Assembly: GCA_043816765.1 (NCBI GenBank) | Contig: JBDRHN010000023.1 | Span: 17,353 to 81,352, forward strand | Length of the DNA: 64,000 nt | DNA from: a bacterium | GTDB lineage: Bacteria; Patescibacteriota; Patescibacteriia; JBDRHN01 | Reading direction: 5' to 3' | The notes under the pieces: model-generated | Told to the model about the DNA's origin: nothing | The model's database searches: none | The model's input: only the letters and a program-made list of their open reading frames with translations | Shown: piece by piece, positions 6,614-60,174 of the stretch | Position numbering within the stretch: position 1 is the stretch's first letter | How the letters are laid out: each line of letters starts with the position of its first letter | Translations under genes and position numbers: made by a program

Positions 6614-7225
6614 CTATAAACTAATCTCCACCAGTCCATTCCTTGCGCCTGGAACTGCTCCTTTTATAAAAATTATATTTTTATCTTTATCTATTTCTAT
6701 TACTTTTAAATTTTTAACAGTAATACGTTTATCTCCCATATGCCCAGGCATTCTCATTCCCTTAAAAACTCGAGCGGGACCTGTGGCTCCTATGGAACCA
6801 GGCATTCTTAATTGATCTTTGTGTCCATGAGAAGCCGGACTTCCTGAAAATCCATGTCTTCTAACTACCCCCTGAAACCCCTTACCCTTAGAAATTCCTG
6901 ATACTTGAACCATATCGCCAATTTCAAAATTTTCAACACTAATTTTATCACCCCGTTTCAATCCTTCTTTGTTGTCAAAATTATCAATCCTAAATTCTCT
7001 CAAATATCTAAACTTATCCAAATCTTTTAAGTGCCCAGTTTCTGGTTTGTTCAACTTATTTTTAGTCAAAAAACCAATCTGAATAGCGTTGTAACCATCC
7101 TTTTTGGTTGTCCTTATTTGAGTAATAACACACGGACCGACCAATACCGCAGTCACAGGAACAACTGTTCCATCATCCACAAATTTCTGCGTCATCTCTA
7201 ATTTTTTACCTAAGATAAATTTCAT
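6614..7225 (-). CDS. rplC: 50S ribosomal protein L3
   Basis: MKFILGKKLEMTQKFVDDGTVVPVT... L3 homology. Confidence 0.94.
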   Translation of the reverse strand: MKFILGKKLEMTQKFVDDGTVVPVTAVLVGPCVITQIRTTKKDGYNAIQIGFLTKNKLNKPETGHLKDLDKFRYLREFRIDNFDNKEGLKRGDKISVENFEIGDMVQVSGISKGKGFQGVVRRHGFSGSPASHGHKDQLRMPGSIGATGPARVFKGMRMPGHMGDKRITVKNLKVIEIDKDKNIIFIKGAVPGARNGLVEISL

Positions 7226-7469
7226 AATTTAGAGTAAATTAAAAACCAGAAACTTGTTTATATTTTTTAATATAAACAAGTTTCCAGTCCTTAAAATTTT
7301 AAACATTCAAAACTGTCAAAAGTTTTATTTTAAGTTTTTGTCTGTTTTCAAAATCTCCTTATCCAATCTATCTCTAAACAAAGTTTTTCACTTTCATTTA
7401 CACTTCAATTGATCTAGTGACTTCTCTTTGTTTTTTAAAAGATTAGTTTTTATCAAATATATTTTAATT

Positions 7470-7814
7470 TTACATTTTTATCTCTACATCAACTCCGGCA
7501 GGTAAATTCAAACTCATTAAATTATCAACTGTTTGCGACGTCGGATCAATAATATCAATCAGTCTTTTGTGGATTCTCATTTCATACTGATCGCGCGCGT
7601 CTTTGTGCACAAATGTTGATCGCATAACTGTATATTTACGCTTTTTGGTCGGCAAAGGAATCGGACCGCAAACTTTTGCCGCCGTTCTTTTGGCTGTTTC
7701 AATAATCGTATTGGTAGATTGATCTATGATCTTATGATCATAAGCCTTAATTTTAATTCTAATCCTCTGGTGATTGTCTTCTGCGTTTTCTTGTTCTTGT
7801 TTATTGTCCGGCAT
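7470..7814 (-). CDS. rpsJ: 30S ribosomal protein S10
   Basis: [17 protein letters not shown]...S10 homology; first gene of S10 operon. Confidence 0.94.
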
Positions 7815-9174: not shown

Positions 9175-9492
9175 TTACTCATCCTCATCATCAACCGGCT
9201 CAAAATAATATTCATCTTCTTCTTCTTCTGTTTCTCTGATATTGTGAACAAAATTATCGCCCGCAACATCACTTTCGCCATATTCTTGCATGCTTTTCCA
9301 AATAGCTATATCACGATTTATTTTAGTCAATAATTCCTCTTCTGTCAAACCTTTCACATCTTTGCCGCTATTTATAACCTTTTCATATTCAGACAAACCC
9401 ATAATAACAAATTGCGGATCGATCTGCTCGTTCACAACTATAATATTCTCTCCTCTTGATAATAACTTTGTAATTTTCGCTAAATTATTCAT
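9175..9492 (-). CDS. hypothetical protein, acidic C-terminal tail; weak Phd/YefM-like N-terminal segment
   Basis: 105 aa; NIIVVNEQIDPQFVIMGLSEYEKV resembles YefM core; EEEEDEYYFEPVDDEDE tail; no partner toxin. Confidence 0.5.
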   Translation of the reverse strand: MNNLAKITKLLSRGENIIVVNEQIDPQFVIMGLSEYEKVINSGKDVKGLTEEELLTKINRDIAIWKSMQEYGESDVAGDNFVHNIRETEEEEDEYYFEPVDDEDE

Positions 9493-9702: not shown

Positions 9703-10806
9703 TTAACCAATTATAACCTTTTGCGCCAAACTTTGAAAAAAATGAAACTTGGCGGTAATCAAAAAAATAATAATCGCAACTGCCGCCAAACTTTGAAAAA
9801 TAACAGCCGGATGTTGAATTTGAATTTTTATTAAAATATTTAAAATCAAAATCAATGCTAAAAAACCCAAACCAAAAAACATAAAATAATCAAAATATTT
9901 TAAAACGACGTTAATTAAACTAGACTTAAAATTCAAAGCAGATTGCTTTACTTCAACTTCTTTAACTTTTGGCTCAATCGGATAATTCTCCCCAAGATCA
10001 ATCTCCTCGCCCATAACTTCAATAGGCAAATTGTTTTCTTGATTTTCTTTCAAACCATCCAAGCCCGCAACCCCCCTTATTGGCGGGACTTCCCCCGTCG
10101 CGGGGACAGGTTCGGCGACGCCGCCGAACCTGCCCCCGCTTGTTTTCTTGATTTCTTGATTAACGTCCCGTTCCTTTCCAAACATCTCAACCATAACCAT
10201 AGTTTTCTTGCCATTCATCTCTCCAATTAAAACAGCTACTCCGATATCATTAAATTTTGGGTTGACAATATTTTTTTTATGAGTCGCGCTTGCCAAAAGA
10301 GCTAAATGCGCCACTTCGGCAGAAGTGAAATTCATTGCTAAATTCTCGCCGGCATTCGTATAGTCATATTCCTTTTTGTCAATCCACTGCCACGGTTTTT
10401 TGCCGTCTGACGTATCATGCGCGAAATATTGATTAAGTAACATATCTTGAGCTTTATCTTTTGCGGCCTTTTCTAAAATTGGGTTAACTTTCAAGGGGGG
10501 GACACCCTCTTCAATTCTTGTTTTATTGGCAAGCTCAATGATTTGATGATAAATATCTGTTGAAAGATAAACAAAATTAGGATATATAATAAACAAAAAC
10601 AGAGTTATAAAAACTTTAAACATAATTAAAAGAGCGACAATCGCGCTCAATGATTTTGAATGCAAAATTTTTGGGCAATAATCATTTTCGGCTGTGGGAA
10701 TTAACCCGTCTTTTGCCTTTTTTCTGATAGAATTGTTTAAAAATTTCGGTTTTTGAACACTTTTTTTCATAGATATAACTATAACAATTTTTTTGAATTT
10801 TGTCAA
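9703..10806 (-). CDS. membrane-anchored CAP (SCP/PR-1-like) domain protein carrying an in-frame GC-rich palindromic insertion
   Basis: N-terminal TM helix, CAP-like region (NQYFAHDT...GENLAMNF), Gly/Pro linker encoded by palindrome 10079-10142, C-terminal TM helices. Confidence 0.7.
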   Translation of the reverse strand: MTKFKKIVIVISMKKSVQKPKFLNNSIRKKAKDGLIPTAENDYCPKILHSKSLSAIVALLIMFKVFITLFLFIIYPNFVYLSTDIYHQIIELANKTRIEEGVPPLKVNPILEKAAKDKAQDMLLNQYFAHDTSDGKKPWQWIDKKEYDYTNAGENLAMNFTSAEVAHLALLASATHKKNIVNPKFNDIGVAVLIGEMNGKKTMVMVEMFGKERDVNQEIKKTSGGRFGGVAEPVPATGEVPPIRGVAGLDGLKENQENNLPIEVMGEEIDLGENYPIEPKVKEVEVKQSALNFKSSLINVVLKYFDYFMFFGLGFLALILILNILIKIQIQHPAVIFQSLAAVAIIIFLITAKFHFFQSLAQKVIIG

Positions 10807-10818
10807 ATTTTCAAAAAA

Positions 10819-12036
10819 TCAATACTGCTCCTCCCAATACTCCACCGTAATCACGGGCGAAAAATCGCTGCCGCCCAAAGTGTCAATAATAACAGAATCA
10901 TCATAACTTATATCCACGCCATTATATAATAACGCGAAATCAACACTTCTCGCTATTATGCCGCCATTTAAAGTAAAGTCGCTTGATAAATTTGTCAAAG
11001 ACAATTCATTTCCTGCATATATCACGCCATTTACAGAAATATCATTAACGCATCGCAAAAACTCTATATTGCTTTTTGAAAACATCCCCGCTGGATATTC
11101 ATCAATATGGTTGATATTTAAAGTGGCGCTATAATCAGGGCAAACTTGCCACCATTTCTTATCGCGCCCAACAGTTATTTTTCCGCTTGTCGCCAAAACC
11201 CCGTTTACTGTTAAATCATGATTGTCTTCTATAATAATATTGCCAGAGACATAAACTGCCCCATCAAACGTGACAGGACCCGAATCCAATAAAACGTTAA
11301 ATTCCGCTTTTGAATAATACTGTCCGAGCAATTGCGCTTGCGACTTGAATGAATCCGGATCAAAAGAATCAAAATCAACAGCCGGTATATCTAAATATTC
11401 AGGAGCGGGAGGATTCACATTTGCAGAATGCATTTCAGCGGCATTTATAGTTGAAAAACCCAAAATAAAAATATCATCCGCGGCTTGCGCCTTGTCCTGC
11501 GCGTCAACAACACTGGCAAGGGTTGCCACTATATCATCATTCGCAAAAATGCTTCCATTGTCAATATCAATATCCGCCGCCGCAACATCAATATCTTGAT
11601 CTGCCAAAATCGCGTTATTATCAATCGCGCTCTCCCCCAACGCTTTAAAAATTTTCGTTTTTATCACTCGCTTGGATTGCTTGTTTCCAAAAGACATCGC
11701 GCTTGCCGCGGTAACATCCGCTTTCGCAAGATCATAATTTTGTATTAAAATATCAAAACTTCCATTGGCGAACAATTCAGAACCACCGCTATAGCTTTGC
11801 GTCCAATTTGAATCTGTTTCAAAATTATTTTCCCATGCAGGATCGTTTTTTAATTTCCAAATAACATATTCAATCCCGGATTCCGCCATATAATACGTCT
11901 GCTGAGATATGGAATAACTGTCTGAAATCCGTTTTTCGCTTAACGTCGAAGTTAAAAAAAAACAACCCATTGTTATCAACAAAGAAGTAAAAAGAATAGC
12001 CGGGATAAGAGCGAAACCGCTGGAATATTTATTCAT
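10819..12036 (-). CDS. large secreted pilus-associated protein with pilin-like N-terminal hydrophobic segment
   Basis: MNKYSSGFALIPAILF.. prepilin-like leader lacking Glu5; Asp-rich beta-type repeats; heads pilin cluster. Confidence 0.55.
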   Translation of the reverse strand: MNKYSSGFALIPAILFTSLLITMGCFFLTSTLSEKRISDSYSISQQTYYMAESGIEYVIWKLKNDPAWENNFETDSNWTQSYSGGSELFANGSFDILIQNYDLAKADVTAASAMSFGNKQSKRVIKTKIFKALGESAIDNNAILADQDIDVAAADIDIDNGSIFANDDIVATLASVVDAQDKAQAADDIFILGFSTINAAEMHSANVNPPAPEYLDIPAVDFDSFDPDSFKSQAQLLGQYYSKAEFNVLLDSGPVTFDGAVYVSGNIIIEDNHDLTVNGVLATSGKITVGRDKKWWQVCPDYSATLNINHIDEYPAGMFSKSNIEFLRCVNDISVNGVIYAGNELSLTNLSSDFTLNGGIIARSVDFALLYNGVDISYDDSVIIDTLGGSDFSPVITVEYWEEQY

Positions 12037-13075: not shown

Positions 13076-13522
13076 TTAGTTATAACGTATGTATCCGGCT
13101 GGTTTTATTTCTATGGAAGACATAGCATTGGTTGACGTATTCACAAAAATAATTGTTCCAGATTCAATAGCGGCGCCGAAATAATTAAATCTAGCCTCAT
13201 TGTCAGTTAAGCCGTTGATTGAATAAAAATTTATTTCTGGGGGCAAAATTTTTTCTTTTATTATAGTTTCTGTTGATTCTTCAATTATACGATATTTATT
13301 TTCCTCCATTATAAATTGCGCGTAATAAAAAGTTTGTTCTGAAATTGTCTGTTGTTGGGCATTTCGCAAATCAGTTGTTATTTCTTTGACAACATTTGCC
13401 AAAACAATGTTTGATATTGATATTCTTATATAAGGCATAGTTATTGACGCGATCAACCCCAAAATTCCAATTGAAACCAAAAGTTCTATAAGAAGGCTGC
13501 CTTTTTGAAAATTTTTATACAT
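13076..13522 (-). CDS. type IV pilin / pseudopilin
   Basis: MYKNFQKG/SLLIELLVSIGILG prepilin-type N-terminus. Confidence 0.78.
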   Translation of the reverse strand: MYKNFQKGSLLIELLVSIGILGLIASITMPYIRISISNIVLANVVKEITTDLRNAQQQTISEQTFYYAQFIMEENKYRIIEESTETIIKEKILPPEINFYSINGLTDNEARFNYFGAAIESGTIIFVNTSTNAMSSIEIKPAGYIRYN

Positions 13523-13784
13523 ATACTCTGAAAAAAATTTTATTTTCTGATAATTTTAAATATTTTTTTAATAAAACTCATATAATTTATATTAGACTTG
13601 CCACGTAATTGGTTGCGCGACAAATCTATTATACCAAATTTTTGTTTAATCCGCAATCTTAAAAAATTTGCAAATTATTTTATTTATTGTAAAATATAAA
13701 AATATAATCTTTTAATTCTTATCATCTAGGTTCATAAAGACTTTATGCCTTTAAAATCTTTATGAACTTTTGACTAATTGTTCT

Positions 13785-14840
13785 ATGATCAACCACTTCA
13801 AACTTTACACAGTAGAAAGCGTCACCTCTGGACACCCTGACAAAATTTGCGATCAAATATCAGACGCCATCTTAGACGAATGCTTAACCCAAGACCCAAA
13901 AAGCCGAGTCGCGGCAGAATGCCTTGGGAGCCATGGTCTTTTGGTTATTGGCGGTGAAATAACCTCAATAGCAAAAGTTGACTTTGAACAAGTGGCAAAA
14001 AAAATATATGCAGACATCGGATATGATGATGATTTAAAAATAATTACACACATAACTCAACAATCCCCCGATATTGCGCAAGGCGTCAATACTGGCGGCG
14101 CCGGAGATCAAGGAATTATGTATGGTTATGCTACCGACGAAACTCCAGAATTTCTACAAAAAGGGGTTGTCCTTGTGCACAAATTAACAAAAGGACTGGA
14201 AGATCTACGAAAAAGCAAAGAGCTCCAATGGCTGCGACCCGATGGAAAAGCGCAAATTACGATAAACGAAAAAACTATTAATACCATTCTAGTCAGCACG
14301 CAACACGACGAAAAAGTTTCACAAACGGAAATACGCGAAGCTTTAATTGAAAAACTCATCGCTCCCCTTATTGATGATATGGCGGGAGTAAAAATTTTAA
14401 CAAACCCGACAGGAAAATTTGTCCAAGGGGGATTTGAGGCCGACGCAGGACTCACTGGGCGAAAAATTATGGTTGATACATACGGCGGGCTTATTCCTCA
14501 CGGCGGAGGATGCTTCTCTGGAAAAGACGCGACCAAGGTTGATCGTTCCGGCGCGTATATGGCGCGCTTTGCCGCCAAAAATATAGTAGCGGCAGGTTTT
14601 GCAAAAAAATGCTTGGTTTCTGTTGCTTACGCTATCGGCCAAGCAGAACCTGTTATGATAGAAGCTGTCAATGAAAAAGAAGAAGATATAAGCTCAATAG
14701 TTCAAGAAAAATTTGATTTCCGCCCCCTAGCTATTATTGAACGTTTAGGTCTGCGACGTCCAATCTATAAACAGACCGCCGCTTACGGACACCTTGGAAA
14801 GGCTGGGTTGCCATGGGAAGAGATTATTAAAAATTTTTAA
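13785..14840 (+). CDS. metK: S-adenosylmethionine synthetase (short form)
   Basis: ESVTSGHPDKICDQISDAILD and GGGCFSGKD motifs; start moved to ATG 13785. Confidence 0.88.
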   Translation: MINHFKLYTVESVTSGHPDKICDQISDAILDECLTQDPKSRVAAECLGSHGLLVIGGEITSIAKVDFEQVAKKIYADIGYDDDLKIITHITQQSPDIAQGVNTGGAGDQGIMYGYATDETPEFLQKGVVLVHKLTKGLEDLRKSKELQWLRPDGKAQITINEKTINTILVSTQHDEKVSQTEIREALIEKLIAPLIDDMAGVKILTNPTGKFVQGGFEADAGLTGRKIMVDTYGGLIPHGGGCFSGKDATKVDRSGAYMARFAAKNIVAAGFAKKCLVSVAYAIGQAEPVMIEAVNEKEEDISSIVQEKFDFRPLAIIERLGLRRPIYKQTAAYGHLGKAGLPWEEIIKNF

Positions 14841-31938: not shown

Positions 31939-31967
31939 TTGACAATGTGGATAAAATTTGCTATATT
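31939..31967 (+). promoter_or_regulatory. consensus sigma70-type promoter (TTGACA-N17-TATATT)
   Basis: TTGACAatgtggataaaatttgcTATATT; near-identical architecture at 37371. Confidence 0.6.
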
Positions 31968-31974
31968 AAAAATA

Positions 31975-32073
31975 CAAAAACCTGTATCCTGAACTGTCAC
32001 CGGATGGTGGCGTGGCTGGGACTCCCAGCATAGGGACGTGGTTGGGAAAAGCCCTTTTTTAGGGCGTTTTTTT
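31975..32073 (+). ncRNA. candidate small RNA (~100 nt) ending at intrinsic terminator
   Basis: no CDS; GC-rich structured core; terminator GCCCTTTTTTAGGGC + T7 at 32051-32073. Confidence 0.4.
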
Positions 32074-32442: not shown

Positions 32443-33444
32443 CTATAACGTCGTAATCGGCCTTGACTGCGTGATATAAAATTTACCTTTTGAAAAAGCC
32501 CATTCAATGTCTTGCGGTTTTTTGTAATGCTTTTCAATTTGACAGCAAATTTTGGACAGTTCAATTATTTGCTTGTTATTTAATTTCTGTTTTTCTTGTT
32601 TTGATTTTGAAACAGGTTGCCACACAATTCCTGAACTGGTTGAATTTTTGCGAACCAACATTTTTTCTTGCTCTGCAATATTTATATCTAAAATTTCAAA
32701 TTCTCCATCGTAGAGACGAGGCACTGCCTCGTCTCTATACTTGTTCACAATATAACTGTCCGGCGTTATCTGTCCTGAAACTATCGCCTCTCCCAGTCCG
32801 TATCCGGCTTCAATGATCATCTGATTTTTATCTTTTGTGATGGGGTGAACAGTGAAACAGACCCCTGATATTTCTGACTGGATCATTTTCTGAACCACAA
32901 CGGCAACGCCGATTTTTTGGTCAACTAAATTTTTTTCATAACGGTAAAAAATCGCTCTTGAGGTATAAAGCGATGACCAGCATTTCTTAACGTTTTTTAA
33001 AAGCGTTTTTTTTGTTGTGTTTAAATATGTTTCCAGCTCCCCGGCCCATGACGCTACTATTGAATCTTCTGCTGTGGCTGAACTGCGCACCGCCACAGAT
33101 TTTGCTTTAAGTTTTTTAAATTCCGCGTTAATTTCGTTAATTAAAACTTTCTGAATTTTGGTGTCGTTTATAATATCGCGAATAATATTAGACGCGCGGT
33201 CAATGGAATTTATGTCATCAAAATTTATTTGAGATAATTGGGCTTTTATTTCCAGCCCGACTTCCGCTGTCTCCGCGCGCGATCTCGCGCTTAAAAAATA
33301 ATCAAATGCGTCGGCTAAAATAACAAAACCATTCGGAACCGGAATTTTTACGTTAATCATTTCTCCGAGCGACGCGCCTTTCCCGCCGGCGGTTTTAATG
33401 TCTCTTGCGGAGATTTTTGAGAATGGGGAGGTGAATTTTGGCAT
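32443..33444 (-). CDS. PPDK_N-type ATP-grasp protein (PEP synthase / rifampin phosphotransferase N-domain family), stand-alone, with in-frame palindrome insertion
   Basis: GGKGASLGEM motif, RSSATAEDS, DIEWA..QSRPIT; insertion YRDEAVPRLYDGE at 32710-32738. Confidence 0.8.
   Translation of the reverse strand: MPKFTSPFSKISARDIKTAGGKGASLGEMINVKIPVPNGFVILADAFDYFLSARSRAETAEVGLEIKAQLSQINFDDINSIDRASNIIRDIINDTKIQKVLINEINAEFKKLKAKSVAVRSSATAEDSIVASWAGELETYLNTTKKTLLKNVKKCWSSLYTSRAIFYRYEKNLVDQKIGVAVVVQKMIQSEISGVCFTVHPITKDKNQMIIEAGYGLGEAIVSGQITPDSYIVNKYRDEAVPRLYDGEFEILDINIAEQEKMLVRKNSTSSGIVWQPVSKSKQEKQKLNNKQIIELSKICCQIEKHYKKPQDIEWAFSKGKFYITQSRPITTL
32710..32738. repeat. family A palindrome inside PPDK_N CDS (in frame)
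   Basis: GTAGAGACGAGGCACTGCCTCGTCTCTAT. Confidence 0.85.
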
Positions 33445-33448
33445 AGTT

Positions 33449-34687
33449 TTATTTTAAAATTTTTATTATTCCTTTATCTGCGTCAACTTCAACTACATCT
33501 CCAGTTTTAATAATTTTCGTAACATCTTTTATAGCAATAATACATGGGGTGCCGAGTTCTCTGGAAATTACCGCCGCATGCGTTGTAATGCCTCCGGTTT
33601 CAGTTAAAACAGCCGCGGCTTTTTTCATGGCTGGCACATATCTGGTTGATGTATATGCGGCAACTAAAATATCTCCTTTTTTTATTGAAGCAAGCGCGTC
33701 ATCTTTTCCGTTTGTTACAACTGCCTTTCCTTTTGTCTTGCCTGGCGATGCGGGTTGTCCTTTAAGCACTTTTTGATTCCCAACAGGAAATACTTCGGTT
33801 AGTTTCCCTTTTTCAAGAAAACGTTCCGCTTCATTTCCTTGATAAATTTGTAATTTTTTTCCTTGATAAAAAAGTATAGTCAATTTTTTGCGTTCTGAAA
33901 TAAGTTTTGTGGGGGGCGTTTTTGTTGCTATCATTTGTCTAATTTCTTTTGGTAAAAGAAATAACGTATCTTTAGTGTCTGAGAGTTTAATCCTGTTCGC
34001 AATCTGCAGAAGAAGTTTATTCCAAAAAACAGCGCGTTCTTCTGTAAATAAGGCGGATCCATCAGCTCTAATATACGCTCCGGCGCGCAATATTGTGCTT
34101 AAATTTTCCTCTTTTTTGTTTAAACGAAAAGCTCCATTTAATTTAGGCATGAGTATCTTTACATAACGAGTTTCGCGGAGCGGTTGTGTGTAGTAAATTT
34201 TATTTTGATCAACTTCTTTTGCATTATCGCTATATTCTGATAATGCCTCAAATAAATCTTCTCCAGTGAGAGAACTAAACATATAAAGCATATTACTTAC
34301 TGCGGCTATGGGAACGCTTAGTTCAAACCCCGAAAGAAATAATCTGCAAAGTTCGGCATCCGAAATATTGTCAAATTTTACAGAATTATTTTCTTTTAAA
34401 AATTTTCTTAGTTTTATTTTTTCTGCTTCATAAAAATTTAATACGTTTTTAATCCATTTGGTATCGTTTAATTTATTGCGAAAACATTTTGAAAGATGAA
34501 TAACATCATCCTCAAGCCCATATTTTTTCTGCTCCCCGTTTTTAATAATTGATAACAATCTATAACGACAACCGCACAAATTTTCAAATATTTCAAAAAA
34601 TTCTTCGCCCGCAAAAGCAACAGCCTGAAGCGGCACAATATCAACACTAAAAAATAATTCGTATTTTTTGTTTTTAAATTTGATCAT
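33449..34687 (-). CDS. PEP-utilizing-enzyme mobile (phosphohistidine swivel) domain protein with ~260-aa unknown N-terminal domain
   Basis: C-terminal ETGGITTHAAVISRELGTPCIIA swivel signature; no PEP-binding TIM barrel. Confidence 0.75.
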   Translation of the reverse strand: MIKFKNKKYELFFSVDIVPLQAVAFAGEEFFEIFENLCGCRYRLLSIIKNGEQKKYGLEDDVIHLSKCFRNKLNDTKWIKNVLNFYEAEKIKLRKFLKENNSVKFDNISDAELCRLFLSGFELSVPIAAVSNMLYMFSSLTGEDLFEALSEYSDNAKEVDQNKIYYTQPLRETRYVKILMPKLNGAFRLNKKEENLSTILRAGAYIRADGSALFTEERAVFWNKLLLQIANRIKLSDTKDTLFLLPKEIRQMIATKTPPTKLISERKKLTILFYQGKKLQIYQGNEAERFLEKGKLTEVFPVGNQKVLKGQPASPGKTKGKAVVTNGKDDALASIKKGDILVAAYTSTRYVPAMKKAAAVLTETGGITTHAAVISRELGTPCIIAIKDVTKIIKTGDVVEVDADKGIIKILK

Positions 34688-34829
34688 TTTTTTTTATATT
34701 AATTTTTTAAAAAAATATTCCGCTTAATCAAGAAACCGCTCGATCTTTTTTGAAACATATTTCGTTAATTGGACAAATTTGTCCATATACTGAAATGGTA
34801 TATTTTATTTTAAAAACATTGCCAAATTT

Positions 34830-36215
34830 TTAACTTAAAATTTTTATAATCCAAATTGGAAAAATATTTCGTTGCGCGGAAAATTCCAGTTTATCTTTTG
34901 AAATTATTGTATAAACATCGCCGGCTTTTTGCGCCTTTCGCCTGATAAATGCCATATCGCCCTCTTTAATGCTTGAAGTATGCTTCACTTCAAAATAGCG
35001 ATAACTTTTTTTGTCCATCAAATCTTTGGCGGCAATAAAGTCAAATTCTTCTTTTCTGATCCGGCAAAAAGCAATATATTGATACTGCTCCCGCAATATG
35101 TTGTAGAAATAATTTTCCACCAAGAAACCTGCTGCAGGAGAATCAACCGCCAAATAATCAAGACCGCGAAAAGCGGCATAAAAATTAACGCTTTCCAAAT
35201 AAATTTTTCTTAACAGCCTTCTGGATTTGCGGAAAGATTTAGAAAAATTATACACAAAGTGAATTAAAAAACTGTTTTCAAAATAACGCAAGTACTTATT
35301 GACTGTCTCTTTATTTAATCCTGCTTCGCTTGCCAAATTTCCAATCTCTATAATTGAGCCGATTTCACTAACCGCTATTTGAAATAAAAATTTCAATTCT
35401 TCTATTTTTTCCGCGCCATATATTTTAGGAATATCATATTCCAAAGTTTTTTTATAAACCGCTTCAATTAAATATTTTTTGCGCGTTTCTATGTCAGGCT
35501 CATTAACCAAAACCGGAAACTGGCCAAAAAATAAATAATCGTAAAAATTTTTTTTCAACTCATTCCCCCATTGATAAACTAATTTTTCAATTCCGGACTT
35601 ATCAATCTCTTGTTGCCCTGGCGCGACGGCAAATTGCTGAAAATCAGCAAGCAATTCACTTTGCGCTCCTTTGATAATTAAGTATTCTTCAAAACTTAAA
35701 ACCGGCAATTTAAATTCATAAATCCGTCCGGCTAAACTCTCCGTAGCTTGTTTTTTTATAAACAAAGACGACGATCCGCTGATTACAAACTTCAAATTAG
35801 GCTCCGTATCATAATAGCGCTTAATAATATGCTGCCACTTTAATGCGTATTGCACCTCATCAATAAAAATATACCTCTTTTTGCCGGAAACGTTTGTTTC
35901 CAAAAAAATATTAATATAATCGGTTAAACTTACTTTACTGCCTATCAAATCTTCATCAAGAGTAAGAAAAAAAATATTTTCCGGTTTTGTTTCCTTGATT
36001 ATTTTTTGAATTAGCTGTTTCAAGAGAACGGTTTTTCCGGTTCGGCGCAAACCGATAATTGAAACGATTTCCCTTTTTTCTAAATAAGGAATAATTTTAT
36101 TTAGTAACGTTCTGCTATGCTTTATGGTTTTTAGGTCGGCAAAAAATAAATCAGCATCTTTCCAGTGTTTATTCTGACGATAAATTTCCGCTAATATTAT
36201 ATCTTTTTTGTTCAT
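34830..36215 (-). CDS. AAA+ ATPase, COG1373/DUF4143 family
   Basis: Walker A GLRRTGKT, Walker B IFIDEVQ; family architecture. Confidence 0.8.
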   Translation of the reverse strand: MNKKDIILAEIYRQNKHWKDADLFFADLKTIKHSRTLLNKIIPYLEKREIVSIIGLRRTGKTVLLKQLIQKIIKETKPENIFFLTLDEDLIGSKVSLTDYINIFLETNVSGKKRYIFIDEVQYALKWQHIIKRYYDTEPNLKFVISGSSSLFIKKQATESLAGRIYEFKLPVLSFEEYLIIKGAQSELLADFQQFAVAPGQQEIDKSGIEKLVYQWGNELKKNFYDYLFFGQFPVLVNEPDIETRKKYLIEAVYKKTLEYDIPKIYGAEKIEELKFLFQIAVSEIGSIIEIGNLASEAGLNKETVNKYLRYFENSFLIHFVYNFSKSFRKSRRLLRKIYLESVNFYAAFRGLDYLAVDSPAAGFLVENYFYNILREQYQYIAFCRIRKEEFDFIAAKDLMDKKSYRYFEVKHTSSIKEGDMAFIRRKAQKAGDVYTIISKDKLEFSAQRNIFPIWIIKILS

Positions 36216-36269
36216 ATTACATTTATGAGGGTTATAACAGCTATAATTGTATCATTTATGCTTGTGTTG

Positions 36270-37334
36270 TCAAGCTAATTTTACGATCCTCACAATCCCC
36301 TTTTCCACGTCAACTTCCACTTTGTCGCCGTCTTTTAAAACTTTCGTAGCGATTTTTGTTCCGATGATGCAGGGGATTTTCAGTTCGCGGGCAATTATTG
36401 CGGCGTGGCAAGTTATTCCGCCGTCGTCAGTTATGATGGCGGCGGCTTTTTTCATGCCAACAAGGTGTTCGGGGCGAGTCATTGGCGCGACTAAAATATC
36501 TCCTTTTTCCACCTTGCCGATATTTTGAGCTGTCATAATAATTTTAACTTTTCCTGTGGCTTTGCCTATGGATACCGCAATTCCGCTTATTTCATTTACG
36601 TCTCCAAAATCCAGCCTGTTGACTATATTTAAAAAATTCTTAGCCTCTTGTCCTGCGTAAATATTCGTTATCTTTCCATTTCTATAAATAAACAAGCTCG
36701 CTTTTCTTCTATTTTTTAATTCAGAAACATTAAATTTTTTCGCTAAAATATTTTTGAATTCCCCAGAACAAGAATATCGCAACAGTTCATGATCTATTCC
36801 TGTCCTTCTGCTAATTTCTTTTAAAATTTTATCAGCCAAAGCAATAAAAGCTAAAGTATACACTTTTCTTTGATCCTGCCATTTGATAAATATTTCAGTA
36901 AGCCTTGAAATCGCTTTAATTTCCGGAGTAAATTTGTATTTTCCAAACAATTTTTCTTTTTCCCGTTTATGTTTTTCTAAAATTTTATTTTGCTTATGTT
37001 TAAATATTCTTTTTATTTCGTCTTCCATTTCTTTAAAGCTATATTCTTTGTGCCCGACATAACTTGATTTTATCCATGAATATTTTATCAAATGCGATTC
37101 CGCCAAAATAGCCAAATCTTTTTTCTTGCTAAGAAATTTTTTTAAACTCCCATTCTTGAATCCCGATTTTTTTATTTTAACCGCGATTTTTCTTAAATCA
37201 TCATCCTCTTGGTTTATAAATGACGGATCAATCGGCGCGCTTAAAACGGAAAATATTTTGTGATAATTTTTTATTTTATTTTCTTCGCAATATTTCTTGG
37301 TCAAAAAATCAAATCTTTTATCAGCGTAAAACAT
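36270..37334 (-). CDS. paralogous swivel (phosphohistidine) domain protein with unknown N-terminal domain
   Basis: DDGGITCHAAIIARELKIPCIIG; C-terminal ~150 aa collinear with 33449..34687. Confidence 0.75.
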   Translation of the reverse strand: MFYADKRFDFLTKKYCEENKIKNYHKIFSVLSAPIDPSFINQEDDDLRKIAVKIKKSGFKNGSLKKFLSKKKDLAILAESHLIKYSWIKSSYVGHKEYSFKEMEDEIKRIFKHKQNKILEKHKREKEKLFGKYKFTPEIKAISRLTEIFIKWQDQRKVYTLAFIALADKILKEISRRTGIDHELLRYSCSGEFKNILAKKFNVSELKNRRKASLFIYRNGKITNIYAGQEAKNFLNIVNRLDFGDVNEISGIAVSIGKATGKVKIIMTAQNIGKVEKGDILVAPMTRPEHLVGMKKAAAIITDDGGITCHAAIIARELKIPCIIGTKIATKVLKDGDKVEVDVEKGIVRIVKLA

Positions 37335-37370
37335 GTAGCCATCAATTGTCGTTATTTTGATAAAAAAAAA

Positions 37371-37398
37371 TAGAAAAAATTTGACACGATGAATTAAA
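37371..37398 (+). promoter_or_regulatory. consensus sigma70-type promoter (TTGACA-N16-TATATT)
   Basis: TTGACAcgatgaattaaattgcTATATTaaaaat, nearly identical to the promoter at 31939. Confidence 0.6.
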
Positions 37399-37404
37399 TT
37401 GCTA

Positions 37405-37522
37405 TATTAAAAATGAACGGCAAGCCCTATATGTGTCGTTTGGGCGCTCCCCTCTGTGAGGCTATGAGCTCAAACATCACAAACCCATAAGGCTCGTTCC
37501 CCCGAAGGGGGTTTTTATTTTT
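37405..37522 (+). ncRNA. candidate small RNA (~118 nt) ending at intrinsic terminator
   Basis: transcript between two minus-strand genes; terminator TCCCCCGAAGGGGGT + T-run at 37499-37524. Confidence 0.4.
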
Positions 37523-37571
37523 CTATAAATACTGCTTATCATAAACAATCTTGTCCTGAAAGATATTCACC

Positions 37572-38783
37572 CTATTCCAAAAATCCAAACAAATACAAAG
37601 GCATCTGTTTGCCGCCGGAAATTAAAATATCGTCTTTAACTAAATAAGAATTTTTGACCTCTTTTATTTGCTTACCCTTTTTGCCGGCTCCGCCGATCTC
37701 TAATGTATATCCATCGCAGATAATATCACCTTGCTTAGAAAAAAATACATTATATCCGGCATTCATCAGATGGCTTACGACAAACAACTCCCTGGTTTGT
37801 CCAAGATCAATCGGTTTGCCGATTGAATTATTGATTGCGCAAAACAAGTTCGTATTATTCAGATAAACTTTTTCTGTATTTCTAATCAAGGCATGTCCTT
37901 GTTTGTTTATTAACAAAAAACGCAATAGTCCGCTTTCTCTCAACATTTCAATATAGTCAGCAATGGTTGTGTGGTCTTTGCCTAAACTTTTAGACAAATT
38001 ATTGACATTTAAACTTCCCGGCTTGCTGGTGGCGAAAAAATAAATAATTTTCCTAAAAACGTCCAGATTATTTGTTTTCAATGAATAAAAAGAGCTGATA
38101 TCCTCAAAAACTGTTTTATTTATAATGCCAAGCAAGGCGTCTTTATAGTCATCATAATTTTCTAACTCCATAAAAATAGGATAATAACCCTGCTTATAAT
38201 ACTCTTTTAAATAACCGATTAATTTTGAAATGTCTGATAATTCTTTTGATATTTTAGAGCCGTCATTGATAATATTTTTTAAAGTAAAAACAGGAAATTC
38301 TTTTTTTAGTTTAACCTCAAGAAATTCCCGGAAAGAAAAGCCGCTCATATATTTTAAATTTGCCCTGCGAGATAAATCATATCTGCCCTTGACAAGATCA
38401 AGACTGGAACTGCCCGAAAAAATAATTTTCATTTTCGGATAAGAATCATAAATATTTTTTAGTTCTTGATTCCAATTTTTATAACGATGAATTTCATCAA
38501 TGCAAATAATTTCGCCGTTATATTCTTTGTGAAATCTGTCGGCTAAATCAATCAAACTATTTTCGGAAAAATAAAGATTGTCGGCAGACACATAAATACC
38601 TTTATCTGTTTTTTGGTATTTCTGTTTAAGGTAATTAAGCAAAAAAATGGTTTTGCCAACGCCTCGCGCGCCAACAACGCCGGTAATTCTGTTGGTTAAT
38701 TTAAAATCAGAAAAAAATTTTCTTTGATAAATAGAATCTATTGATTTTAATAATCTATGATAAGTTTCAATTAAGCTTTGCAT
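37572..38783 (-). CDS. AAA+ ATPase, COG1373/DUF4143 family (second paralog)
   Basis: Walker A GARGVGKT, Walker B ICIDEIH. Confidence 0.8.
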   Translation of the reverse strand: MQSLIETYHRLLKSIDSIYQRKFFSDFKLTNRITGVVGARGVGKTIFLLNYLKQKYQKTDKGIYVSADNLYFSENSLIDLADRFHKEYNGEIICIDEIHRYKNWNQELKNIYDSYPKMKIIFSGSSSLDLVKGRYDLSRRANLKYMSGFSFREFLEVKLKKEFPVFTLKNIINDGSKISKELSDISKLIGYLKEYYKQGYYPIFMELENYDDYKDALLGIINKTVFEDISSFYSLKTNNLDVFRKIIYFFATSKPGSLNVNNLSKSLGKDHTTIADYIEMLRESGLLRFLLINKQGHALIRNTEKVYLNNTNLFCAINNSIGKPIDLGQTRELFVVSHLMNAGYNVFFSKQGDIICDGYTLEIGGAGKKGKQIKEVKNSYLVKDDILISGGKQMPLYLFGFLE

Positions 38784-38902
38784 ATAATTTAGCTAAATAA
38801 TTAGTTTGGATATACTCAAATAATTATATAGTATTTTTTGGGTGCAGTCAAATTTTTAAAAAAAATAGCGGCTTGTCTGCCGCTATGTTGAGAAAAAAAA
38901 TT

Positions 38903-38944
38903 TTCGGGTAGGTTCGGCGACGTCGCCGAACCTACCCGAAAATT
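38903..38944 (-). terminator. 42-bp perfect GC-rich palindrome acting as efp terminator
   Basis: TTTTCGGGTAGGTTCGGCGACGTCGCCGAACCTACCCGAAAA; core shared with 10109-10130; T-run follows on minus strand. Confidence 0.6.
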
Positions 38945-41314: not shown

Positions 41315-42925
41315 ATGTCCCCAAAAAACAACCCAATAAAATACTTCTTTATTTTAGGCAACAACCCCGCTCTTTCGTTGGCTGAAATTTTCGGGTTGCT
41401 TAATTCTGGAGATAAAGACTTCCGCCTCGCGGGAGTCTCTCCGCAGAGGACTCCCGCGAGACAAGGTTGTCATACTCCCACGTCGGAGTCCCCCGCCTGC
41501 GGGCGGGGAGACTCCGACGGAGCACCGAGTCAAAATTTTAATTTACATAAAAATGCCAGAATAATAACTTTTTGTAAAGATTTTTTGATTATTGAATTAG
41601 ATAAAAAAATTGACGCGAATAAGTTGATGGGGGTTTTGGGCGGGACTATTAAAATAGGGATTATTTTAGAAAGCCAAAATGCAAATATTGAAACGCGCGA
41701 TTTGATTGAAAAAATTAATATTGATAAAAATAAAAAATTTTATTTTGGTTTTAGCGCTTATGGTAAAATTGGCGCGAATTTTAAACGGCTTGCAATGGAA
41801 ATAAAAAAAAAATTAAAGCAAGATGGGACATCTTCGCGCTGGGTAATCTCGCGCGAAAAGCAGTTGTCTTCTGTCGTTGTTAAAAAAAATAAATTAGTTG
41901 GTGAAAATGGAACGGAGTTTTGTGTTTTGAAAAATAAAGATAAAATTTTTTGGGGCAAGACTTTGGCTGTTCAGGAATTTGAAGATTATGGACAAAGAGA
42001 TTTTTATCGACCCGCAAGAGATCCGAAATCAGGGATGATTCCCCCAAAACTTGCGAATATGATGATCAATTTAGCGCGCGCTGAATTGGACTTTAAAACA
42101 AAAAACGGCATAACTCTTTTAGATCCGTTTTGCGGAAGCGGGACGATTTTGCAAGAAGCGGCGATTTTGGGGATTAATAAAATAATCGGGAGCGACTTGA
42201 GCGAAAAGGCGACGCGAGATTCGGAACAAAATTTGAAATGGCTGGAAGAACGTATTGACATTTCACCGCAGTCCGCTAACGGAAAAAGTGGTATTGCGCG
42301 GATAGATGCGACGACGTCGCCGCATGCGGGAAAGAGGCTGAACACCCCGCTGGACGTTCAGCGCCTAGGGCGCGAGGACTCCTGCGCAATTTCAATTTTT
42401 AATTCTGACGTCAGAAAAATAAGCGAACTAATTCCCGCCGGTTCTGTTGATTTAATAGTTGCCGAACCTTATCTGGGACCGCCTTTATCTGGGGGTGAAA
42501 ACGAAAATAGAATTAGCCAAATTGTTCAAGAGCTAAGCGAGTTATATTTATCAGCTTTTAAAGAGTTTAAAAAAATTCTAAAAAAAGACGGGTGTATTTG
42601 CATGGTCTGGCCGGTCTTTGCTATTTGCAAAAAAAATATATTTCTGCCGATTTTGGGTGAGGTAGAGAAACTGGGGTTTAGGCAGGTTAGGTTTGATAGC
42701 GGCAATTATGTTAATTTAATTTTTGATGGCGGTTGTAAAACGCAATTTGCCGCTCCCGCGCCGCAGTCCCCTGACGGGAGACTGCGGCGGAGCACAGGTA
42801 ATGATGGCGATGAATTAAAAAATTTTAAAAAAAATCTCGCTGATAATTTTAGCGAGCGTGGAAATATTGTTTACGGACGAGATAGGCAGATTGTCAAAAG
42901 AGAGATTGCGATTTTTAAAATATAA
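41315..42925 (+). CDS. THUMP-domain SAM-dependent RNA methyltransferase (UPF0020/Trm11-like) with three in-frame GC-rich palindromic insertions
   Basis: LLDPFCGSGTILQEAAILG SAM motif, DLIVAEPY; insertions at 41423-41528, 42300-42385, 42748-42810. Confidence 0.75.
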   Translation: MSPKNNPIKYFFILGNNPALSLAEIFGLLNSGDKDFRLAGVSPQRTPARQGCHTPTSESPACGRGDSDGAPSQNFNLHKNARIITFCKDFLIIELDKKIDANKLMGVLGGTIKIGIILESQNANIETRDLIEKINIDKNKKFYFGFSAYGKIGANFKRLAMEIKKKLKQDGTSSRWVISREKQLSSVVVKKNKLVGENGTEFCVLKNKDKIFWGKTLAVQEFEDYGQRDFYRPARDPKSGMIPPKLANMMINLARAELDFKTKNGITLLDPFCGSGTILQEAAILGINKIIGSDLSEKATRDSEQNLKWLEERIDISPQSANGKSGIARIDATTSPHAGKRLNTPLDVQRLGREDSCAISIFNSDVRKISELIPAGSVDLIVAEPYLGPPLSGGENENRISQIVQELSELYLSAFKEFKKILKKDGCICMVWPVFAICKKNIFLPILGEVEKLGFRQVRFDSGNYVNLIFDGGCKTQFAAPAPQSPDGRLRRSTGNDGDELKNFKKNLADNFSERGNIVYGRDRQIVKREIAIFKI

Positions 42926-59010: not shown

Positions 59011-60174
59011 ATGTATATAGATAGAACACTGGAGAAAAAAATCAAACAATTAGCTAAAACTTATCCCGTTGTTGCGTTAACCGGACCCAGACAATCTGGA
59101 AAAACAACAATGGTTAAAAAAATATTTTCTGGAAAAAAATATATATCATTGGAAAATTTAGACAACAGAGCCTTTGCCAAAAATGATCCCAGGGGATTTT
59201 TAAAAACTTATAAAAATGGAGCAGTCATAGACGAAGCGCAAAATGTTCCTGAATTATTTTCTTACATTCAGGAAATTGTAGACACAAACAAAAAACCAGG
59301 GGAATTTATTTTGACGGGTTCGCAAAATTTTTTATTGATGGAAAAAATTAATCAAAGTCTGGCGGGCAGAATAGCTATAACCACCCTTCTGCCTCTTAGT
59401 ATGGAAGAAATCAGTAAAAAGACAAAAAAATTACAGCTAAATCAATTAATGCTTAATGGACAATATCCGATTATTTATGAAAAAAAAATAGACGCAAATG
59501 AATGGTATCAAAATTATATTAAAACATATATTGAAAGGGATGTCAGACTAATGAAAAATATAACTGACTTAAATTTATTCCAAAAATTCGTTAAACTATG
59601 CGCGGGGCGAATTGGACAAATTTTGAACCTAACTTCAATCGCAAATGATTGCGGGGTAAGCCATAATGTTATCAGGGGATGGATATCTATCTTGGAAGCA
59701 AGTTATATAATTTTTCTCTTGCACCCCTATTATGAAAATTTTAACAAACGTCTTATCAAAATGCCAAAAATATATTTTTATGACACAGGGCTTGCGGCAT
59801 CATTGCTTGGCATAGAAGATAAAGACAAGTTTGATATTAATCCGTTTAAAGGGGGTCTGTTTGAATCATTTGTTATTTCAGAAATTATGAAAAAAGAATA
59901 TAACAAAGGCAGAACTCCAAACATATATTTTTGGAGGGATAAAACCGGGCATGAAATAGATTGTTTATATGAAAATAAAAGAAAAAAATACGCGATAGAA
60001 ATAAAATCAGCGAAAACGATAAACAGTGATTTTTTTGACAACTTAAATTATCTGCAAAAAATTTCAAAAAATAATTTTACGAATTCTGTTTTAATTTACG
60101 GTGGAAACGAAAAACAGAACAGAAATGACGCAACTGTCTTGGGCTGGAACAACTTTGTTTCCAAATTGAATTAG
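59011..60174 (+). CDS. AAA+ ATPase, COG1373/DUF4143 family (third paralog)
   Basis: Walker A GPRQSGKT, Walker B VIDEAQ. Confidence 0.8.
   Translation: MYIDRTLEKKIKQLAKTYPVVALTGPRQSGKTTMVKKIFSGKKYISLENLDNRAFAKNDPRGFLKTYKNGAVIDEAQNVPELFSYIQEIVDTNKKPGEFILTGSQNFLLMEKINQSLAGRIAITTLLPLSMEEISKKTKKLQLNQLMLNGQYPIIYEKKIDANEWYQNYIKTYIERDVRLMKNITDLNLFQKFVKLCAGRIGQILNLTSIANDCGVSHNVIRGWISILEASYIIFLLHPYYENFNKRLIKMPKIYFYDTGLAASLLGIEDKDKFDINPFKGGLFESFVISEIMKKEYNKGRTPNIYFWRDKTGHEIDCLYENKRKKYAIEIKSAKTINSDFFDNLNYLQKISKNNFTNSVLIYGGNEKQNRNDATVLGWNNFVSKLN

Follow-up and report, generated by a model that had tools for sequence, protein, structure and literature searches.

Dikinases in which the ATP-grasp domain lies on one polypeptide and the substrate-binding and phosphohistidine domains on another have been characterised in phenylphosphate synthase PpsAB, CreHI, AcvAB and the phenylphosphoamidate synthase PasAB; the orf9/orf10 pair of the 3-hydroxypyridine cluster likewise comprises an ATP-grasp subunit and a substrate-binding/His subunit. 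HpeHI has been described explicitly as a two-component homologue of rifampin phosphotransferase (RPH) (PMC12167813), and the structure of HpeI has been solved and HpeH modelled (Dexter et al. 2025). Enzymes of the PpsAB, CreHI, AcvAB and HpeHI type received the name "two-component small-molecule dikinases" in 2025; the characterised relatives phosphorylate phenolics, and PpsA, CreH and HpeH (the last of 71 kDa) are ~45% identical to each other. Here we describe a locus of related architecture from an ultra-small bacterium of the candidate phyla radiation (CPR; Patescibacteriota), located on contig JBDRHN010000023.1 of assembly GCA_043816765.1; the window is the whole analysed stretch of 64,000 nucleotides of this contig, and the locus occupies positions 32443 to 38783 of it. 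The low GC content of the window and its nearest homologues indicate an origin in Patescibacteria; NCBI proteins of this genome include MFH1564447.1 and MFH1564448.1.

The locus is probably a two-component RPH-type small-molecule dikinase accompanied by debris, a reading drawn from its likeness to the characterised enzymes. Within the known two-component RPH-type dikinases it belongs to a branch specific to CPR and DPANN, of which the window holds a reduced and partly degraded example, invaded by genes of the PDC-S01 type. A preliminary description of this DNA held the split layout not to be a described system; this does not stand, as PpsAB, CreHI, AcvAB, PasAB and HpeHI have the same split (PMC12167813). 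What is new with respect to the searchable literature is a family specific to CPR bacteria and DPANN archaea, with several to ~10 specificity subunits per locus and at most one ATP-grasp gene in view.

Architecture of the locus

The five open reading frames (ORFs) named in the preliminary description are all present on the minus strand at the positions listed below. Pfam bears out the domain layout given there, with one PPDK_N gene, two genes combining an N-terminal domain with a phosphohistidine swivel domain, and interleaved AAA genes; the quoted motifs GGKGASLGEM, GGITTH and GGITCH were all found in the sequence.

32443..33444, minus strand: ATP-grasp (PPDK_N) subunit, 333 aa; Pfam PPDK_N E 2.5e-93
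33449..34687, minus strand: intact specificity and phosphocarrier subunit, 412 aa; PEP-utilizers swivel at residues 335-406, E 6e-23
34830..36215, minus strand: AAA_14 plus DUF4143 ATPase gene, 461 aa; Pfam E 8e-34 and 2.5e-18, PADLOC PDC-S01 196.6 bits
36270-37334 (homology from 37346), minus strand: second specificity and swivel paralogue, 5'-truncated, ORF of 354 aa; swivel at residues 276-346, E 7.8e-26
37572..38783, minus strand: AAA_14 plus DUF4143 ATPase gene, 403 aa; Pfam E 1.6e-26 and 4e-07, PADLOC PDC-S01 106.7 bits

The 333-aa protein has PPDK_N as its sole Pfam domain, covering model positions 3-311 of 328, and contains neither a swivel domain nor a TIM barrel; the NCBIfam models for phosphoenolpyruvate (PEP) synthase and RPH match it only through their N-terminal ~315-337 positions. 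Standalone ATP-grasp homologues of 312-333 aa that are 60-73% identical occur across many Patescibacteria lineages, with more than 100 cluster representatives, and in 30 sequences neither K22 (GGKGA) nor R120 (VRSSATAED) varies. The protein is predicted to be the ATP-binding "charging" component, the counterpart of PpsB, CreI, AcvB and HpeI and of residues 1-314 of RPH.

In the 412-aa subunit, residues ~1-300 form an RPH-like substrate-binding domain and residues ~305-412 the C-terminal His-swivel, with the predicted catalytic His370 in GGITTH (codon 33578-33580); the AlphaFold model of the subunit has a pLDDT of 87.9. The stop codon of its gene lies 4 nt ahead of the ATP-grasp start codon, a gap that suggests co-expression of the two genes, which are probably translationally coupled. 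Subunits of the 412-aa type recur across genomes, being 56% identical at L001, 42% at L003 and 41% at the archaeal locus L004 (L numbers designate the loci used for comparison). Gene context was taken from such homologues, as exact-sequence contig look-ups with the 412-aa protein of the window gave no match.

The closest solved structure is RPH (Listeria 5HV1/5FBS); the N-terminal domains of the specificity proteins adopt a distinct RPH-like helical fold that is not found in PEP synthase, and profile alignment of the family with RPH-type proteins from Firmicutes and other phyla gives a probability of 99.7 (hhalign). Arg666 and Glu667 of RPH, on a helix with the motif R-E-x-x-K (the Lys being Lys670), are essential for the second phosphotransfer (PMC4844700); hhalign sets the family motif Q291-D292-x-R294-K295 on this helix, pairing acid with acid and Lys with Lys, while the Arg is three positions out of register. 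All of 99 sequences have R294 and K295. The GGxxxH catalytic motif is retained in all modules examined from split loci (25/25). The proposal that the domain content of RPH is split between polypeptides is thus upheld; the split falls between the ATP-grasp and the substrate-binding domain, and the latter has an RPH-like fold. The possibility that the N-terminal domain is the C-terminal half of PPDK_N was rejected, as the ATP-grasp gene already covers 3-311 of the 328 model positions and the fold of the N-terminal domain is RPH-like.

Several properties are shared with the characterised two-component dikinases. A PPDK_N subunit of ~35-40 kDa is paired with a second subunit that carries an RPH-like substrate domain and a C-terminal swivel, the genes are adjacent, and there is no TIM barrel; furthermore, the catalytic His lies ~40 residues from the C-terminus of the second subunit. 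The differences concern size, setting and gene number: second subunits of the CPR type are 412-490 aa long versus 71 kDa for HpeH, the window is without aromatic-catabolic partner genes such as carboxylases, and the hosts here are CPR and DPANN symbionts. In related loci, moreover, the second subunits number up to ~10, and no more than one ATP-grasp gene is in view.

A family of specificity subunits in CPR bacteria and DPANN archaea

Homologues in which the swivel is the only Pfam match are widespread in Patescibacteria and DPANN archaea. An exhaustive search (E <= 1e-3) with the 245-aa substrate-binding part of the truncated paralogue, excluding its swivel, returned at least 507 cluster representatives (clusters at 50% identity), most of them 470-525 aa long; 11 of the top 150 matches are 790 aa or longer, some with 2-3 tandem modules and a length of up to 1836 aa.

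Related loci hold 4-10 divergent specificity and swivel genes and at most one ATP-grasp gene. At L003 at least nine consecutive genes of this kind are followed by one 321-aa PPDK_N gene, and L006 (Buchananbacteria) has five together with one PPDK_N gene; L001 and L005 each have four, with no PPDK_N on the fetched stretch, while L007 and L008 each consist of one ATP-grasp/swivel pair. The module is also found fused to PPDK_N in single proteins of ~810-836 aa (L009, L013, L014 and L015), and the fused protein of L013 is 39-40% identical to the family of the truncated paralogue over 375 aa; since such fused forms exist in other CPR genomes, the ATP-grasp and the module are considered to work together. 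Two modules lie behind one ATP-grasp at L010 (384-4319, 1311 aa) and L011 (9869-13570, 1233 aa). The giant fusions P0366 (1836 aa) and P0441 (1341 aa) have one PPDK_N and two modules, or up to three by hit count; such multi-module proteins would amount to covalently linked arrays.

Median identity falls stepwise from 67% for the ATP-grasp, compared between genomes, to 55% for the swivel and 25% for the substrate-binding domain, both compared within arrays. Judged by the gene counts, this conservation gradient and the multi-module fusions, one highly conserved ATP-grasp probably serves several divergent specificity subunits across the family. From the recurrence of distinct orthologous groups in different genomes it follows that the paralogues are old; their specificities presumably diverge. 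No paper on several to ~10 specificity subunits per single ATP-grasp gene was found within the literature searchable.

The only recurrent partner among the unannotated array neighbours is a His_Phos_1-like protein of ~275 aa, which is absent from the window. Proteins of this type (~271-275 aa), whose similarity to His_Phos_1 (histidine phosphatase) is weak, are encoded within or a short way downstream of dikinase genes at three unrelated loci, L003 (191-1006), L010 (4920-5747) and L013 (12383-13210); the gene directly follows the dikinase gene in L013 and lies ~600 nt after it in L010, and a second His_Phos_1-like ORF of ~274 aa is present at L003 9377-10201. The protein is a possible phosphatase partner acting on the phospho-product or on phospho-His. 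Together with haloacid dehalogenase (HAD) and 2H-phosphoesterase genes, these His_Phos_1-like genes of related arrays, none of which lies in the window, hint at phosphorylation-dephosphorylation chemistry.

Comparison with PEP synthase and rifampin phosphotransferase

PEP synthase and pyruvate phosphate dikinase (PPDK) are the nearest relatives of the ATP-grasp and swivel domains in sequence, including the GGxT[S/C]H motif; the window differs from them in having no TIM barrel, an extra RPH-like domain ahead of the swivel and a swivel that is C-terminal. A hidden Markov model (HMM) of the C-terminal domain, trained on 15 classical PEP synthases, gave zero matches to the PEP-utilizers_C TIM barrel in the six-frame translation of the 64-kb window, whereas the same HMM matched 47 ORFs in control loci; the absence of a PEP/pyruvate TIM barrel noted in the preliminary description is hence confirmed across the whole window. 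A PEP synthase in three pieces was rejected for this reason, on the evidence of the 64-kb window.

It is highly improbable that the genes are pieces of a decaying classical PEP synthase (ppsA) or PPDK, pseudogenes without a function of their own. It is true that PEP synthase models give the ATP-grasp and swivel their highest scores (NF005057, 328 bits; for the swivel, PDB 8a8e with 85-91 bits), that the motif GGxT[C/T]H of the swivel resembles that of PEP synthase, and that one of the two swivel genes is genuinely truncated. However, besides the missing TIM barrel, the N-terminal domains have an RPH-like fold that PEP synthase does not contain, the standalone ATP-grasp has been kept at its narrow length range and 60-73% identity across more than 100 cluster representatives, and the substrate-binding domain on its own defines at least 507 clusters of consistent length. 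The dN/dS ratio is 0.15 (0.148 for the 354-aa gene compared with its orthologue, a value that mostly reflects history predating the truncation), and GGxxxH is intact in every one of the 25 modules. Decay into pseudogene pieces, named in the preliminary description among the findings that would overturn it, is in effect refuted.

RPH is the closest solved structure, NCBIfam RPH models match both subunits, and a resistome survey counts "rph" genes in CPR genomes (PMC8651080), all of which would fit a split rifamycin phosphotransferase conferring resistance against rifamycins made in the community. This function is nevertheless improbable. The two window proteins score 260 and 77 bits, far under the NCBIfam cut-off of 999 (NF041857); the substrate domain is ~130 aa shorter than the RIF-binding domain and 15-22% identical to it; and rifampin-contacting residues, compared without structure coordinates, were not seen to be conserved. 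The arrays of up to ~10 paralogues, with substrate domains ~25% identical, favour many substrates over one antibiotic; furthermore, the characterised relatives act on phenolics, and the family also takes in the prodigiosin ligases PigC and RedH, going by NCBIfam names. RPH also differs in being a single polypeptide where the window has two, and the window swivel is more PEP-synthase-like than that of RPH.

Proposed reaction

By homology with PpsAB, HpeHI and RPH, the two-component dikinase would be expected to act on a small molecule and to follow the reaction cycle of these enzymes. ATP would be bound by the ATP-grasp subunit, where the swivel His370 of the 412-aa subunit would dock and attack the beta-phosphate; AMP would depart and the gamma-phosphate be hydrolysed, leaving His~P. 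The phospho-His domain would then swing back to the substrate-binding domain of its own subunit and pass the phosphoryl group to a hydroxyl (or amine) of the bound small molecule, aided by the conserved acid/Arg(/Lys) helix. The net reaction would be X-OH + ATP + H2O -> X-O-P + AMP + Pi.

Several observations weigh against this assignment. The NCBIfam PRK08296 (PpsA-like) models cover only residues ~303-412 of the 412-aa subunit, that is, the swivel, and kinship with the second subunits of the characterised enzymes was not found at the sequence level. Of the catalytic helix, the 412-aa subfamily keeps only [D/E]-x-R; its Lys is not conserved. As in PEP synthase, a Thr stands two positions ahead of the catalytic His (GGITTH, GGITCH), whereas RPH-type proteins and HpeH, PpsA and CreH have Met; because of this substitution the CPR family is not a simple member of either the RPH-type or the HpeH/PpsA/CreH group. 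Lastly, the gene counts from which sharing of the ATP-grasp is deduced come from partial contigs.

A further alternative is an ATP-dependent ligase resembling PigC/RedH, in which phosphorylation would prime a substrate for condensation, or a phosphorelay to a protein or nucleic-acid end; genes of phosphatase families in related arrays would then act on its product. The regions matched by NCBIfam PigC/RedH models coincide with those matched by the RPH models (RedH 645-879 against residues 117-352 of the truncated paralogue), and His_Phos_1-like, HAD and 2H-phosphoesterase genes recur in or beside related arrays. No partner biosynthetic genes are present in the window, where the flanking genes are the housekeeping genes for a class A penicillin-binding protein (PBP1A), a major facilitator superfamily (MFS) transporter, elongation factor P (EF-P), single-stranded DNA-binding protein (SSB) and ribosomal protein S6; fold and motifs support phosphotransfer only to something held in the RPH-like cleft, with nothing pointing to a macromolecular acceptor. 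This alternative is considered unlikely, if less so than rifamycin resistance, and phosphorylation of a small molecule by a two-component dikinase is preferred.

The truncated paralogue and loss of array genes

The preliminary description proposed two alternative specificity and swivel subunits; the second, at 36270-37334, is a 5'-truncated remnant that has lost the first 134 of 490 aa. Its nearest homologues are ~490 aa long, and residues 135-490 of the orthologue P0121 (490 aa, 89% identity) align to 37346..36279 by tblastn, while residues 1-134 have no counterpart anywhere in the window by the same search. The ATG of the 354-aa ORF corresponds to an internal Met of the ancestral protein (IDGYMFYAD). 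The AlphaFold model of P0121 (pLDDT 95) places the N-terminal beta-sheet subdomain and three helices in the lost part; the ORF retains the WQDQRK helix (36864-36881) and His310 in GGITCH (codon 36405-36407). No sigma-70-like promoter was found upstream of the ORF on the minus strand (37335-37571). Because the N-terminal beta-sheet subdomain is lost, the 354-aa copy is probably a non-functional remnant. Its description as a paralogue of the 412-aa subunit is borne out by profile comparison of the two families, which are homologous over nearly their full length (hhalign probability 100, E 1.6e-64), but not by BLASTP, where the similarity of the two proteins is confined to the C-terminal ~200 aa (36% identity).

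P0121 is encoded at L005, which is syntenic with the window and reads in the order EF-P, 321-aa ORF, swivel-496, HAD, 2H phosphoesterase, swivel-729, swivel-476, P0121 and AAA_14. Between the EF-P terminator and codon 135, the genes of L005 are replaced in the window by the AAA_14 gene at 37572-38783 and a 225-nt spacer; the genes so replaced are the unannotated 321-aa ORF, three swivel genes, the HAD hydrolase, the 2H phosphoesterase and the 5' end of the paralogue. Nothing in L005 resembles the spacer, which lies upstream of the truncated gene. EF-P and the 147 nt downstream of it are conserved with L005 (89%) up to the following palindrome, which looks like a strong bidirectional terminator.

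38899-38944: near-perfect palindrome with a 20-bp stem and T-runs on both sides, between EF-P and the AAA_14 gene

At L005 itself, an 82-nt direct repeat (89% identical) of a swivel gene 3' end, at 9402-9483 and 10816-10897, brackets the ~1.4-kb AAA_14 cassette, which shows that insertion or recombination took place in a repeat-rich array. The second repeat copy is nearer to the window sequence than the first, and the orthologue of the window gene 34830-36215 begins directly past it, with only its start present. The conserved 3' ends of swivel genes may be sites of recombination or insertion at which cassettes are shuffled in the arrays.

Interleaved AAA_14/DUF4143 genes

PDC-S01 is a very common single-gene candidate defence system, an ATPase fused to a PD-(D/E)XK domain, for which defence activity is unvalidated (PMC12988326). 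All copies in the window have the same AAA_14 plus DUF4143 architecture and match the PADLOC PDC-S01 model at 107-359 bits; the two interleaved copies sit inside a metabolic gene array, in which they differ from PDC-S01 as described. The best match is a third copy.

59011-60174, plus strand: third AAA_14 plus DUF4143 gene, 387 aa; PDC-S01 359.4 bits

The preliminary description regarded the embedded AAA+ ATPases as part of the system. Were they to work with the dikinase, say as regulators or as effectors under the control of phosphorylation, all five genes would form one system; the interleaving of two AAA_14 genes with the swivel genes of the window would then be expected, as would the AAA_14 gene that directly follows the orthologous swivel gene at L005. 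This is very unlikely. The genes match a widespread stand-alone candidate defence family and are present in three copies within 64 kb, the third being 20 kb away with no dikinase gene nearby; AAA_14/DUF4143 genes are absent from the related arrays L001, L003, L006, L007 and L008; and the two interleaved copies are only 27% identical to each other. The AAA_14 gene of L005 is an insertion flanked by the 82-nt duplication, and one window copy lies exactly where array genes have vanished. Each interleaved gene also has its own promoter-like site (36273-36246 for gene 34830..36215 and 38851-38823 for gene 37572..38783), and the latter site, together with the strong terminator at 38899-38944, sets gene 37572..38783 apart from EF-P. 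Around the two interleaved genes nothing convincing was found in the way of transposon-like boundaries (inverted repeats or target duplications). From their sequence relationships and placement, the AAA_14/DUF4143 genes appear to be independent candidate defence or selfish genes of the PDC-S01 type that invaded, and partly deleted, a once larger array.

Other small cassettes lie in or near related arrays. L001 has nucleotidyltransferase genes paired with HEPN/HepT-like genes, of toxin-antitoxin type, among its swivel genes (6769-7775 and 10559-11174), and in L008 an unannotated 135-aa ORF comes after a nucleotidyltransferase gene (13283-14237). Selfish or defence cassettes of small size seem to find a general landing place in these arrays.

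Other features of the window

Two small RNA matches, a methyltransferase-like gene and a tRNA gene were recorded in the window.

31979-32047, plus strand: DUF3800-IX sRNA (Rfam RF02968), full-length match; 52.9 bits against a gathering threshold of 36.8, E 2e-9
37414-37500, plus strand: DUF3800-V RNA, sub-threshold match; 23.5 bits against 37.4, E 0.41
41315-42925, plus strand: methyltransferase-like ORF (UPF0020 / N6_N4_Mtase), 536 aa
55940-56013, plus strand: tRNA-Ile with anticodon TAT (UAU)

The DUF3800-IX sRNA lies within the 566-nt gap downstream of the ATP-grasp gene and is framed by a sigma-70-like promoter (31939-31967, 11/12 with TG) and a terminator-like hairpin (32051-32065). The DUF3800-V match falls in the spacer, richer in GC, that separates the AAA_14 gene from the truncated swivel gene, with a promoter-like site at 37381-37408 and a terminator hairpin at 37496-37512; it may represent a second small RNA gene brought by the insertion.

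The 536-aa methyltransferase-like ORF contains GC-rich islands at ~41400-41550, ~42250-42400 and ~42700-42800, with 54-60% GC versus 21-37% around them; these encode Arg/Pro/Gly-rich stretches resembling in-frame insertions, and two of the three share the 17-nt motif CCGCAGTCC[G/C]CT[A/G]ACGG. The tRNA-Ile with anticodon UAU is an uncommon bacterial route for reading AUA codons.

Implications for CPR and DPANN biology

The family is large and, in many CPR and DPANN genomes, retained in the form of arrays. Its members currently go under the misleading labels "PEP synthase", "PEP-utilizing enzyme", "phenylphosphate synthase" or "rph"; in DPANN archaea, such genes have been annotated as phenylphosphate synthase without a carboxylase (PMC8091004). 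Identification as modular RPH-type dikinases would provide a concrete chemistry, X-OH + ATP -> X-P + AMP + Pi, and would correct reconstructions that count a gluconeogenic PEP synthase, phenol degradation or rifampin resistance.

Much of what CPR bacteria and DPANN archaea encode is without an assigned function, and these organisms obtain most of their building blocks from hosts on which they depend. The use of one ATP-grasp for many specificity subunits is a possibility unreported for this enzyme class in the searchable literature. A tentative extension, possible though less probable than the dikinase assignment itself, is a hub-and-spoke arrangement in which a single ATP-grasp charges up to ~10 specificity subunits, each phosphorylating a different scavenged metabolite or xenobiotic. 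If true, the window would be a reduced version with one working pair and one dead spoke, and the family would represent an ATP-driven soluble analogue of the logic by which EI serves many EII in the phosphotransferase system (PTS), trapping diffusible compounds in cells of minimal metabolism.

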